64,000 bases of DNA from Candidatus Scatovivens sp. GTDB taxonomy: Bacteria > Bacillota > Clostridia > TANB77 > CAG-508. The stretch covers positions 321 through 64,320 of the forward strand of contig JBJFFD010000044.1 of assembly GCA_051891335.1 (NCBI GenBank). The letters are read 5' to 3'. Shown piece after piece: positions 51,538 to 59,010 of this stretch. The notes below the pieces were generated by a model, which saw only the letters and a list, made by a program, of their open reading frames with translations, searched no databases and was not told the origin of the DNA. Made by a program: the position numbers and the translations under genes. The stretch's first letter is position 1. Every line of letters begins with the position of its first letter.

Positions 51538-52446
51538 TTATATTAATTTTTTTAATTTAATAAATAGTATTAAAACTAGTCCTATAGCAACTAAAATAAT
51601 TATTGAAGTAATATAAACTTTATTAATTTTCTCACTTGGATTTGTTTCTTCTTTTTTTATTTCATTTGTCTTATCAAGAATATTACTACTTTCATTTTTG
51701 TCAATATTGTTTAATTCCGTTGTATCATTCACTTTAGCATTTTCTTCTATTTGCTCACTATTCTCCTCATTATTAAGTTTGATATCTTCTGGTTGTGTTT
51801 TACTTTCAGTAGTTGCCTTATTTTTTTTAGTTTGTTTAGTATTTTTAGTAGTCACATTAGGCGTTGTTACTTGAGATTGAGATTGGTCTTCCGGCTCTTC
51901 TGAATTTATAACTGTATTATTTTCTTGTTGATCTAATTCTGAATTTTCTGTTTCTGGATTTTCTATTTCTGGTTTGGATTCCTCTGGAGCTTGTTTATAA
52001 ACTTCTAAATAAATTTGATTTTCAGGTGCAGTTACTTCATCACCATTTGAAGAAGTTAAAACATTTTTTATTTTTATTGCTGAATTTCCAACTTGTGCAC
52101 TTTCTTTTACTTTAAATGTAATTTCTGCAATTGTTTCTGTTTGAGTAACATTTCCTGACTTAGAAGCTACTATTCCTGTTTTGTCACTAGAAATGCTTCC
52201 TATCCAATTTGAACACCAGTTAATATTTTGAAATTCAAATATATTTTTATTATACTCTAGTTTTGCTTCTACTGCTTTTTGTTCGCCTGGTCTGACAAAA
52301 TTATTTACACTTATTTTTATAGTAAAGTTTTCTTTTGATTGAACTTTGCTTTTATCTGTATTCAAACTCATACTAACTCCAGAAGCCATACACGTAATTG
52401 TCATACACCAAAGTAAAATTATAAATATTACAAATGTTTTTTTCAT
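51538..52446 (-). CDS. Membrane-anchored cohesin-like domain protein
   Basis: Signal peptide, then a beta-rich domain of about 140 aa (FTIKISVNNF...AVEAKLEYNKNIFEF...IAEITFKVKESAQVGNSAIKIKNV), an acidic/polar linker and a C-terminal TM helix. Confidence 0.55.
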   Translation of the reverse strand: MKKTFVIFIILLWCMTITCMASGVSMSLNTDKSKVQSKENFTIKISVNNFVRPGEQKAVEAKLEYNKNIFEFQNINWCSNWIGSISSDKTGIVASKSGNVTQTETIAEITFKVKESAQVGNSAIKIKNVLTSSNGDEVTAPENQIYLEVYKQAPEESKPEIENPETENSELDQQENNTVINSEEPEDQSQSQVTTPNVTTKNTKQTKKNKATTESKTQPEDIKLNNEENSEQIEENAKVNDTTELNNIDKNESSNILDKTNEIKKEETNPSEKINKVYITSIIILVAIGLVLILFIKLKKLI

Positions 52447-52464
52447 TATTATTGTTTCCCTTCT

Positions 52465-58400: not shown

Positions 58401-59010
58401 TATTTGCTTCATTGTTTTCAAATGGCATATCTTCTTCTAATAATGGTCCTGTACCACGTGACAAATATGTAAATGCTGTTGTAGCAAATCCTCCATATCC
58501 AGCTTCTCTATTTAATGCCCAAGGATTTTCTTGTCCTTCTAAAAAGCTTTTTGAAGTATTATATTCCATGTGTCTTTCAGAGAATTCATAATATTCATTT
58601 TGGTTAAGAGCTAAGTTAGTTTCAACTGTTGATAACGAGCTAAATGCCCAACATTCTCCTGTATTCATTTGGTCTTTTCTTTCAATACTTATTCCACCAT
58701 ATTGTTTCACATCTATATTAGTTTCATTTTTATCTATTAGTACATAACTTTCTGGCAAAGTAATTGACTTAGCAGCTCTTCTTACAAAATTGAAAAGACC
58801 TGTTTTAGCAGTTTCTCTAACATTAAACGGCAATGGAGCTATCGTTCCTTTTCTTTCTTCTTCTGGAAGTGCTAACCATTCTAAATATCTTTTACTATAC
58901 TCTGTTTCTTCAATATTAATATTATTTTTTCCCTCAGCAAATACTTTTATATTTATAGAAAATATTATTAAAAGTACTAAAACAAAATATAACAGTTTTT
59001 TCTTCTTCAT
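52465..59010 (-). CDS. Giant secreted protein: papain-like (C1) cysteine peptidase, LRR arrays, 8 Big_3-type Ig repeats, C-terminal dockerin
   Basis: Start MKKKKLLYF at 59010 (AAAGGAG RBS, downstream of the prfA terminator). Protease: GECWAFSS, HDVTIIGWDD, LNSWGKEWG. 22-aa LRRs (LxxLxxLxLxxNxIxDI). 81-aa repeats. Dockerin loops DCNGNGKCNVSD and DINGDGRINVVD. Confidence 0.9.
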   Translation of the reverse strand: MKKKKLLYFVLVLLIIFSINIKVFAEGKNNINIEETEYSKRYLEWLALPEEERKGTIAPLPFNVRETAKTGLFNFVRRAAKSITLPESYVLIDKNETNIDVKQYGGISIERKDQMNTGECWAFSSLSTVETNLALNQNEYYEFSERHMEYNTSKSFLEGQENPWALNREAGYGGFATTAFTYLSRGTGPLLEEDMPFENNEANIDINTMPKIDSTKKIGNLIYLPSIYKEITADGIIYMDANYNEYSKSEVTEIRNKIKEHIMKNGGIVTAIWAPSEQYFYNPDKYSENNNGIGMTNHDVTIIGWDDNFSKDNFKYKPNEDGAYIVLNSWGKEWGNEDIYYISYEDLMVESSLRGLANVEDVDYDTIYQYDISEMISNLRCNYAANIFTSKDYEELTEISIGTIVDNTYNVYLSQNTDNLSLQNAQKIFSNVELKAGYNRLKLNEKINLEKGSNFAIIVEALNSDKGIGFENSGEYFGNATSNFGESFASMDGINWDDMHEYNIDNFSIKAYTKTNNINLKIIESKCSTLKLIETLEGTIFFNLDKSTAVVDENIGFEIYDENGAEVSQKFEIDMSKIKDNKIYVSMTSDVTQGEYFVKLLYNSEIVDEQSFSVEGKDYDQENFVKIYFPDKNLYNAMKTIAVKKDEIYMYFDETQEIILDINIKRINLSGTEKEINFDEEVAPGCNVSDLTGIQYLKQLETLILTSNPIEDLKPIETLNNLKELEIYYPEWTSYRNSIKNISVIENLVNLQKVVLTNNDELSDINFLSNLTNLKYLDLHLNSITDVEVIKQLSNLEYLNLNGNKISNIEELSGLINLKYLDITNTQTQDISFVKQFSQLKELRAASNNISELDLLKNLTQLEKVSLRSNNIKDISSFENLVNIKELYLGRNDIDNISSLENLVELYFLELSDNNITDITVIQNLNKIKDLELANNKIEDVTAIKNLSNLEILVIVNNKISNIDEILNNLDNLKYLYAYGNNIEGIQVNKITKIEELELAANKIKDLSWLKIENFPKLKYLNLYDNNIEDASNIENGIYYQLEYLDISNNLIQKDIEISENNEIIEIDLLPIMKQALNENSLLYSKNGLEFKNCEIDYENNKLIIDPQEIDYAWLKIKSGLAENTSFEIYLTYNSEVVTKTVEVYIPDKNLFDAIVRLRNNIEYSRLIKDYNNSTQIITLHKKLLEDIKILDFKYCNIMDLTGIEVFENLEEINLKGNYELNKINNLSSLKNLKTIDISGTYNDELNQEVKTLMNEFKNTGLKIINNRTNGYWGVQNYGGDYDIPIYFENILENEQSSVEAYMLFDVINKSENYFDFEIDYSGDKEPVELLLDKENNRIKYYPNLDITISHKNEYRAMYVIVKGGPYDGTSYIQIYRLQGQEIKNFEITKMPDKLEYIEGENFNPEGTVAKITYLNDRTIEVDDYEIENGTELTLNQTEVKLKYKINQAELEQNIPITVKQKTLQNLVINTNPNKTTYIEGQNFDISGLELMGEYDNGKSYLLDINNCTVYRGENLQLGQTEVTVEYTENDVTKQIKIPIEVIEKSLNKIEIGSNPEKINYIEGQNFDSTGLKVMAKYNDGTEKEVTDYVVKNGENLQLGQTEVIVEYTEKEITKQVKISIIVVEKTLVSIEIRIAPEKVNYIEGQDFDSAGLKVIAKFDNESEDEIKDYIIKNGENLQLGQTEVIVEYTKNEVTKQEKIEITVVEKTLISIEIESTPEKVSYIEGQSFDSTGLKIIAKYDNGRKEEITNYIIKNGENLQLGQTEVIIEYTEREVTKQTKIEISVVEKTLASIEIVSAPEKVRYIEGQEFDSTGLKVIAKYDNGAEKEITNYIIKNGENLQLEQDEVTLEYTEKEITKQAKISITVLEKSLSSIDILEDAKKVSYIEDQSFDSTGLRIIAKYDNETEKEITNYTIKDGDNLQLGQTEVIVEYTEKGITKQVKIAITVVKKTLVSIEIISAPEKVNYIEGQNFDSTGLKVMAKYDNGIEEEITNYTIEDGKNLQLGQTEVTVEYTEKEVTKQIKIPIKVIEKVIDNIEFIEYVEEQEGNTNYLNGILSETTIEKMLLNINTNSNIEFFDNKDQKVSNSSDIVKTGMKLKVSLNGQIKEYVLIVKGDCNGNGKCNVSDLTTMMLSISESLGTEAKDESKILKQAYAKAADINGDGRINVVDITRMSMLIAEKK
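52925..54870 (-). repeat. Eight tandem 243-bp coding repeats (Big_3-like Ig domains)
   Basis: Units of the form KTLVSIEI..APEKVNYIEGQNFDSTGLKV.AKYDNG.E.EIT.Y.IKNGENLQLGQTEV.VEYTEKE.TKQ.KI.I.VVE. The central six units are highly similar at the DNA level. Confidence 0.9.

Follow-up and report, generated by a model that had tools for sequence, protein, structure and literature searches.

A stretch of 64,000 nucleotides from Candidatus Scatovivens sp. (hereafter the window, 64 kb, to which all statements on the sequence refer) carries two adjacent genes on its minus strand. The first encodes a large cysteine protease fused to leucine-rich repeats (LRRs), immunoglobulin-like (Ig) repeats and a C-terminal dockerin, and the second a small cohesin protein with a C-terminal hydrophobic anchor. 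Their arrangement and that of their relatives suggest that this two-gene operon probably displays the protease/adhesin on the cell surface by means of a cohesin-dockerin tether. Both proteins are identical to NCBI entries from a metagenome-assembled genome (MAG) of Candidatus Scatovivens sp. (Clostridiaceae incertae sedis), where the larger one (MGN1299501.1) is named 'leucine-rich repeat domain-containing protein' and the anchor 'cohesin domain-containing protein'. The elements of the operon are the following:

about 59053..59097, minus strand: terminator of the upstream release-factor gene, 14-pair stem (terminator scan)
52465..59010, minus strand: protease-LRR-Ig-dockerin gene including its stop codon (open reading frame and translation)
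52447..52464, minus strand: intergenic spacer of 18 nt (from the sequence), holding the ribosome-binding site (RBS) GAAGGGA and no terminator in the scan
51538..52446, minus strand: gene of the 302-aa cohesin anchor (open reading frame)
51491..51530, minus strand: AT-rich hairpin with a 13-bp stem, AAAATCTCATAAT/ATTATGAGATTTT, followed by a T-run (read from the sequence)

The two genes are co-directional, with the protease gene first. Its ATG at 59010 has an RBS (AAAGGAG) 7 nt ahead of it and its stop codon, TAG, occupies 52467-52465. A preliminary description of this DNA had put the spacing of the genes at 19 nt, one more than it actually is. The cohesin-anchor gene shares the reading frame of the protease gene and, since no terminator separates genes that are 18 nt apart, the pair constitutes a bicistronic operon. 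The terminator of the release-factor gene sets its 5' boundary. Between this terminator and the RBS of the protease gene, the sequence TTGTTC-16 nt-TATACT is a possible promoter, proposed from a match to the consensus only. At the other end, the AT-rich hairpin is likely the terminator of the operon; it escaped the terminator scan because its stem contains only 2 G-C pairs. The window has a GC content of about 25% and Pfam identifies PcrA and glycogen phosphorylase among its housekeeping genes, while positions 51000-60000 had no megablast match in phage and plasmid collections. The window thus does not have the look of a phage or a plasmid.

The product of the protease gene is 2181 aa long (250 kDa, isoelectric point (pI) 4.6). 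The preliminary description had announced a modular protein of about 2180 residues; both open reading frames (ORFs) lie where it had placed them and every element that it described is present. The modules are, from the N-terminus:

58936..59010, minus strand: signal peptide, residues 1-25, MKKKKLLYFVLVLLIIFSINIKVFA (from the sequence, which also suggests the cleavage site)
58720..58935, minus strand: Cwp84-type propeptide, residues about 26-97 (phmmer alignment to 4ci7)
57991..58719, minus strand: C1A papain-family cysteine protease domain (Peptidase_C1, PF00112, at residues 98-340, 63 bits)
57472..57912, minus strand: Cwp84-type lectin-like domain (PF18560 at residues 367-513, E 1.5e-22, full length 1-156/156)
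55837..56958, minus strand: LRR block 1, about 15 internalin-like 22-residue repeats, residues about 685-1058 (Pfam LRR)
55261..55458, minus strand: LRR block 2, 3-4 repeats, residues about 1185-1250 (LRR_EndoS at residues 1187-1240)
52915..54858, minus strand: eight tandem 81-aa Big_3 Ig-like repeats, residues about 1385-2032 (Big_3, 86 bits)
52690..52914, minus strand: small pre-dockerin module (...KTGMKLKV...EYVLIVKGD), conserved ahead of the dockerins of relatives (homologue C-termini)
52468..52689, minus strand: dockerin, residues 2108-2181 (Dockerin_1, PF00404, at residues 2113-2174)

The first 640 aa of this protein are comparable to Cwp84 of C. difficile. Residues 32-515 align with the structure of this protease (PDB 4ci7) with an E of 1e-27 and, as the alignment begins at query residue 32 and chain residue 11, it covers the propeptide. 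Gln114, Cys120 and His298 correspond to Gln110, Cys116 and His262 of Cwp84, and the Cys, His and Asn motifs of an intact papain active site that had been pointed out earlier were all found (GECWAFSS at 118, HDVTIIGWDD at 298 and NSWG at 328). The protein therefore has the three components of a Cwp84-like module, i.e. a propeptide, a papain fold with its Gln/Cys/His residues and PF18560. In C. difficile, the S-layer precursor SlpA is processed by Cwp84, and the role of its propeptide and its active-site residues have been described (PMC4089489). The two proteins share a homologous propeptide, C1A protease and lectin-like domain, but Cwp84 continues with three CWB2 repeats whereas the window protein has LRRs, Big_3 repeats and a dockerin instead; the Pfam scan detected no CWB2 (PF04122) repeat in the 2181 residues. 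The protease module has 8871 relatives at E<=1e-3, and 74 of the best 150 representatives at 50% identity end in a dockerin. The association of a Cwp84-like protease with a dockerin is thus that of a large existing family.

The protease module is followed by repeats of two kinds. LRR block 1 is matched by LRR_4 (149 bits over 8 stretches), LRR_8 and LRR_14, and its period of 22 residues is clear (autocorrelation 0.34). The preliminary description had assigned two blocks of 22-residue LRRs to this region: this holds for the first one, with its approximately 15 units, but the second comprises only 3-4 units and has no clear period. The scores of the NCBIfam internalin models are far below their cut-offs for this protein, which is thus not an internalin orthologue. 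The expected number of Ig-like repeats was recovered, since the motif Y[IV]E[GD][QE].F[DN]..G matches eight times in the Big_3 array at a spacing of 81 aa; this array is likely a stalk. The pre-dockerin module has no Pfam match.

The dockerin, which the preliminary description had presented as a two-loop module, scores 31.5 bits against Dockerin_1 (cut-off 22.9, E 2e-7) and thus passes the curated threshold. It contains two calcium loops of 12 residues, DCNGNGKCNVSD and DINGDGRINVVD, each followed by a helix and canonical at D1/N3/[DN]5/G6/D12, and this duplicated pair is the only one of its kind in the six frames of the window. Taken alone, this dockerin retrieves the solved dockerin 4fl4_A at 5e-4, and calmodulin EF-hands score about equally. 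One may therefore consider that the module is an EF-hand-type Ca2+-binding element with a stabilising or ligand-binding role, that the cohesin-like protein is unrelated to it and that their adjacency is meaningless; many non-cellulosomal dockerins are not known to have a partner. Yet the Pfam match exceeds its curated cut-off, and a profile that combines the window dockerin with those of the partner loci described below retrieves solved dockerins at 1e-17 to 1e-20 (1ohz_B at 3e-17) and favors true dockerins over calmodulin by more than 10 orders of magnitude. A simple EF-hand would also leave the recurrent pairing of dockerin and cohesin genes unexplained, which makes this interpretation very improbable. 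A word-index homology search with the C-terminal 152-aa region returned no homologues.

The two halves of the dockerin carry near-symmetrical segments, CNVSDLTTMMLSI and INVVDITRMSMLI. A dual binding mode has been shown in symmetrical dockerins of group 4 that bind ScaE (PMC5301203) and, by analogy with them, the near-symmetry of the window dockerin would permit such a mode as well. The first loop (52633-52668, minus strand) contains a pair of cysteines that is found in none of the 13 partner-locus dockerins and that could possibly form a disulfide or alter the coordination of Ca2+.

The second gene encodes a protein of 302 aa with the following parts:

52384..52446, minus strand: signal peptide, residues 1-21, cleaved between ...TITCMA and SG (sequence and homologue alignment)
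51991..52380, minus strand: cohesin domain, residues 23-152 (Pfam, AlphaFold2 (AF2) and Foldseek)
51625..51990, minus strand: acidic disordered linker of 122 aa, residues 153-274 (composition; AF2 predicted local distance difference test (pLDDT) <60)
51628..51642, minus strand: NPSEK, residues 269-273, a degenerate sortase motif (alignment with homologues)
51541..51615, minus strand: C-terminal transmembrane (TM) helix, residues 278-296, and basic tail KLKKLI (mean hydropathy 2.97; AF2 helix at 271-301)

This layout of signal peptide, single cohesin, acidic linker and C-terminal helix is the one that had been described beforehand. The homologues share the cleavage site, which in them lies between ...SMA[AS] and NVS. 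Anchoring as a lipoprotein was considered and rejected, as neither Cys14 nor Cys19 is preceded by a canonical lipobox. The linker contains 30 Asp and Glu against 14 Lys and Arg (pI 4.3). The identity of the cohesin is supported by Pfam (PF00963 at residues 28-138, 39.8 bits for a cut-off of 24.1, E 6e-10) and by its predicted structure. Searching the PDB sequences with the whole anchor by phmmer produced spurious TOM22 matches only, so that a fold search was required. In the AF2 model, which was built on an alignment of 25 homologues, residues 25-150 are all-beta with a pLDDT of 92-98 and adopt the beta-sandwich (jelly-roll) of cohesins. Almost all of the top 30 Foldseek matches in the PDB are cohesins, of types I, II and III, the best one being a non-cellulosomal cohesin of C. 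perfringens (2vo8, E 6e-9, TM-score 0.82, root-mean-square deviation 2.3 A); 2jh2, from the same species, is likewise among the best. The cohesin sequence profile places the NagJ cohesin first, although weakly (E 0.02). A failure of this domain to fold as a cohesin had been fixed in advance as a reason to abandon the display model; both the AF2 model and the Foldseek search instead identify it as one.

The C-terminus of the anchor can be interpreted in the light of its relatives. A profile search with the cohesin domain yielded 122 clusters of small single-cohesin proteins (140-240 aa), the C-termini of which overwhelmingly consist of LPKTG, LPQTG or LPKAG, a hydrophobic stretch and a basic tail; some of these proteins also match Gram_pos_anchor in Pfam. 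NPSEK aligns with the LPKTG, YPKTG or IPQTG of homologues, and the nearest kin of the window anchor (P0003, P0006 and P0008) have no sortase motif either. Judging from this alignment, the TM helix is the hydrophobic part of a degenerated sorting signal. The preliminary description had treated a TM-anchored cohesin as distinctive, which does not hold, since the helix is homologous to a part of the LPXTG signal that most family members keep. The protein could conceivably still be cleaved by a sortase and linked to peptidoglycan through a non-canonical motif around NPSEK: its C-terminus retains the tripartite organization (motif position, hydrophobic stretch and basic tail) and aligns with the LPKTG, LPQTG, YPKTG or IPQTG signals of most of the 122 family members. 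Nevertheless, the Thr and Gly that all known sortase motifs contain are missing from NPSEK, and neither P0003, P0006 nor P0008 offers an alternative one. The Pfam scan of 35 window ORFs detected no sortase domain either, although 64 kb are a weak sample in this respect. A sortase substrate is thus improbable and the anchor is most likely retained as a type I protein of the membrane; it is in this sense that we infer membrane rather than cell-wall anchoring.

The association between the two genes was examined in relatives. Species-representative genomes were scanned with an alignment of four cohesin sequences, which led to 19 loci, all of them in MAGs (uncultured Clostridia, Clostridium sp. and one Bacilli) that come, according to the names of the records, from rabbit, wild-mouse and Hadza samples. 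Their dockerins were identified with a hidden Markov model derived from the loci themselves and verified against Pfam. In 14 cases out of 19, the cohesin gene is preceded on its own strand by the gene of a large Dockerin_1 protein, which ends 0-130 nt upstream. The cargos of these pairs are diverse: NPCBM and F5_F8_type_C domains (L010-L014, L019 and L022), a transglutaminase core with Ig domains (L018 and L020), LRRs (L016 and L026), Ig-like domains (L015 and L025) and, in L021, no assigned domain. The closest relatives of the protease module lead to a similar picture. The nearest one (P0124, 48% identity) combines C1, lectin-like, LRR and dockerin modules, and its gene is followed by that of a 310-aa cohesin protein ending in MPKTG and a TM segment. 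The tandem pair P0132/P0129 precedes a cohesin protein with LPQTG. After P0128 comes a similarly arranged protein, in which the N-terminal domain is probably a divergent cohesin (hhalign 79%, E 1.7e-5). In the case of P0135, the contig extends only about 270 nt past the gene and contains an ORF on the opposite strand. The retention of the pairing while cargos are exchanged is the strongest available indication that the neighbours would be cognate partners. The 14 loci and the nearest protease homologues thus lend strong comparative support to the surface-display model that had been put forward in the preliminary description.

Some of these loci have particularities of their own. The cargos of L018 (6055-9882) and L020 (6154-9903) have a cohesin inside the chain (residues about 980-1130), in addition to their transglutaminase core and Ig domains, and end in a dockerin. 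With this organization, they would be able to bridge the anchor and further dockerin proteins as adaptor scaffoldins. The cargo of L015 (4863-9719) has three dockerins, located at about residues 101-160, at about 264-319 and at the C-terminus. At least six consecutive genes of L024 (8591-20216) mix cohesins, dockerins and Listeria-Bacteroides (Flg_new) repeats, 18 of which are found in a single 1991-aa protein; to judge from its domains, this cluster is a more elaborate non-cellulosomal cohesin-dockerin system. Finally, L001/L009 and L028 share the neighbourhood of their anchor (ComEC, small ORFs, the cohesin and then a CDP-alcohol phosphatidyltransferase). A protease-LRR-dockerin gene is found upstream of the anchor in L028 only, and the dockerin gene nearest to the anchor of L001/L009 encodes a serpin-dockerin 9.5 kb off. 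This suggests the gain or loss of a cargo at a fixed anchor locus.

Several observations weigh against a tether between the two window proteins. Five of the 19 loci have no adjacent dockerin gene, so that this family's anchors are not necessarily reserved for a single cargo. The dockerin of the window is unusual, with Cys at positions 2 and 8 of its first loop and, between the loops, a linker that exceeds that of its relatives by about 10 residues, and on its own it scores modestly both in Pfam and in its PDB match. A single-sequence AF2 model of the C-terminal 152 aa only reached a pLDDT of 40 and was discarded. Moreover, just 64 kb of the genome are visible and other cohesins and dockerins may exist. 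An alternative is that the cohesin is a general surface anchor, comparable to ScaE or to the cSca5 of Limousia, for several dockerin proteins or scaffoldins encoded elsewhere in the genome. In that case, the protease would be just one client or prefer another cohesin, and the pair would be a piece of a larger cellulosome- or mucinolysome-like system and not an independent two-gene device. ScaE and cSca5 do bind many partners, and no dockerin gene adjoins that of the nearest relative of the window cohesin (P0003, 49% identity), although one for a serpin-dockerin lies 9.5 kb away; the L024 cluster and the adaptor-like cargos of L018 and L020 would also be congruent with such a network. Yet the window holds just one dockerin and one cohesin, and cognate partners are the simplest explanation for an adjacency that persists, despite swapped cargos, in 14 of the 19 loci and recurs beside the protease homologues. 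A general anchor is therefore an unlikely substitute for the display of the protease/adhesin by its neighbour, but both readings are not mutually exclusive and can hold together. The qualification of the anchor as dedicated, which the preliminary description had used, is nonetheless overstated, given that some related anchors have no adjacent cargo and one has its serpin-dockerin gene at 9.5 kb.

The analysis shows which domains are present, how the cohesin folds, the signals for secretion and anchoring, the structure of the operon and a pairing of the genes that is conserved in relatives. On this basis, the operon is proposed to function as follows. Both products would be exported by Sec, the 2181-aa protein being made as a zymogen with a Cwp84-type propeptide. 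Once its signal peptide is removed, the anchor would be a type I membrane protein that exposes its cohesin on a 122-aa linker and keeps its basic tail in the cytoplasm. The dockerin would then bind the anchor cohesin in a Ca2+-dependent manner, a physical bond that is predicted here from the sequences of the pair and of its relatives; in consequence, the protease/adhesin would be held non-covalently at the surface in a ratio of roughly 1:1. The cohesin-dockerin bond would thereby replace the CWB2 repeats that anchor Cwp84 in C. difficile. The Big_3 stalk would make the LRR module and the protease protrude from the cell, with the LRRs serving as an internalin-like binding module. Owing to the fusion with internalin-like LRRs and to the glycan-directed cargos of the sister cassettes, the targets of the protease and of the LRRs would be host proteins or other surface or environmental proteins.

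Several known systems resemble this operon in part. A functional parallel may be drawn with ScaE of R. flavefaciens. This small envelope-anchored protein has one cohesin, with which it tethers clients to the cell by binding the XDoc of the CttA adhesin, that of ScaB and that of a putative cysteine peptidase, and its gene belongs to the same sca cluster as cttA (PMC5301203). The window anchor resembles it in its layout (signal peptide, one cohesin, linker and envelope anchor at the C-terminus), in its predicted client, a cysteine protease/adhesin, and, for most of its relatives, in an LPXTG motif. Nevertheless, it has NPSEK instead of LPXTG and is probably membrane-embedded, its organism gives no sign of a cellulosome, its cohesin is structurally closer to those of C. 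perfringens than to the type III ScaE, and its cargo combines a Cwp84-like protease with LRRs and eight Big_3 domains. The cohesins of the toxin/glycosidase complexes of C. perfringens (NagJ, NagH and NanJ; 2vo8, 2jh2 and 2ozn) are the nearest ones by structure and, weakly, by profile. They also belong to a low-GC gut Clostridium that uses them outside cellulosomes and against host substrates, but they are found inside large secreted enzymes, which they link together, whereas the window cohesin stands alone on a small cell-anchored protein.

Other comparisons concern the anchor, the gene pair and the cargos. Predicted proteins with one cohesin and a C-terminal TM helix are known from Lachnoclostridium sp. 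MSJ-17, H. luporum, C. cibarium, R. difficilis and others, and a direct attachment of complexes to the membrane has been proposed for them, in species that are not cellulolytic as well (PMC11557425, PMC13463774). The window anchor has the same layout, but the partners were not identified in those reports whereas the window operon encodes a cognate candidate. In C. lentocellum, ClcC and ClcD are encoded by adjacent genes with one cohesin and one dockerin and their heterodimer was shown experimentally (PMC13487519); in contrast to the window pair, their cargo belongs to a cellulase system and they are not described as cell-anchored. The mucinolysome of Limousia, also from gut Clostridia, includes dockerin-bearing peptidases and a highly expressed LPxTG-anchored protein with a single cohesin, cSca5 (PMC12997984). 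The NPCBM/F5_F8_type_C glycan-directed cargos of the related loci are reminiscent of this system, which differs by its multi-cohesin scaffoldins and more than 20 dockerin-bearing carbohydrate-active enzymes (CAZymes), none of which is found in the window. With one cohesin, one dockerin and no CAZyme cargo, the 64 kb do not have the composition of a cellulosome, an amylosome or a mucinolysome, for which a scaffoldin with at least two cohesins and several CAZymes with dockerins are required. Lastly, the 2010 catalogue of dockerin-bearing proteins of R. flavefaciens already included LRR proteins (28), peptidases (16), transglutaminase-like proteins (10) and serpins (3) (PMC2930009), the same cargo classes as in the loci of this study.

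On the 3' side of the operon, beyond the hairpin, 49197-51256 (minus strand) contains ORFs of 535 and 150 aa without Pfam match or signal peptide. Directly upstream, 59215-63963 (minus strand) contains the class-I release factor (PCRF and RF-1), an AAA_27/AAA_15 ATPase and a Metallophos protein that together make up an SbcCD-like pair and, at the edge of the window, the C-terminal part of a TraG/T4SS coupling protein. A related protease-dockerin/cohesin cassette (L032) is also located about 3 kb from a TraG-like gene, and the cassette may neighbour conjugative elements. Farther away, 27566-36826 (plus strand) encodes a 2490-aa two-module non-ribosomal peptide synthetase (NRPS) with two Condensation, two AMP-binding and two PP-binding domains and a terminal NAD_binding_4 reductase, immediately followed by a 7TM-PAS histidine kinase. 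Its architecture is similar to that of the gut-Clostridia NRPSs that produce dipeptide aldehydes, which act as cathepsin inhibitors; it lies 17 kb from the C1 protease gene and no sign of a connection between them was seen. A protein of the Fic/DOC family, with Fic_N and, at its C-terminus, a SoFic-like domain, is encoded at 37058-38128 (minus strand).

The preliminary description knew of no earlier account of a protease-LRR cargo with a dedicated TM cohesin, but precedents have been published. Dockerin-borne cysteine peptidases that bind ScaE, dockerin-LRR proteins, TM-anchored single cohesins, an adjacent cohesin-dockerin pair and mucinolysomes are already described. Since non-cellulosomal systems, dockerin-borne peptidases and LRR proteins and single cohesins with TM anchors are all known, the operon does not open a new category. 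Three features are modestly new: a conserved two-gene cassette of uncultured gut Clostridia with low GC content, in which the cargos can be swapped, the fact that the window anchor has lost its sortase motif and the particular protease-LRR-Big_3 cargo. More speculatively, the pair could exemplify a 'plug-and-display' cassette in which a small cohesin anchor follows whichever large surface protein ends in a dockerin. This cassette would be the principal means of surface display in a lineage of gut Clostridia that are uncultured, have a very low GC content and are known from MAGs of chicken, rabbit, mouse and human origin. Its cognate pairs would diversify together with their cargos, among them proteases, LRR adhesins, transglutaminase-like proteins and NPCBM/F5-8C glycan binders. 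The version in the window would then have switched from sortase to membrane anchoring, and its protease would act on host mucosal or matrix proteins and not on an S-layer precursor; this extended scenario is tentative and rather doubtful as a whole. If the predicted bond is real, the operon would provide a compact 1:1 cohesin-dockerin display outside polysaccharide degradation, with which a gut commensal would present a 250-kDa protease/adhesin. A cassette with interchangeable cargos would also supply tractable natural cohesin-dockerin pairs for the study of binding specificity and host interaction, and these pairs may be usable as orthogonal surface-display parts.

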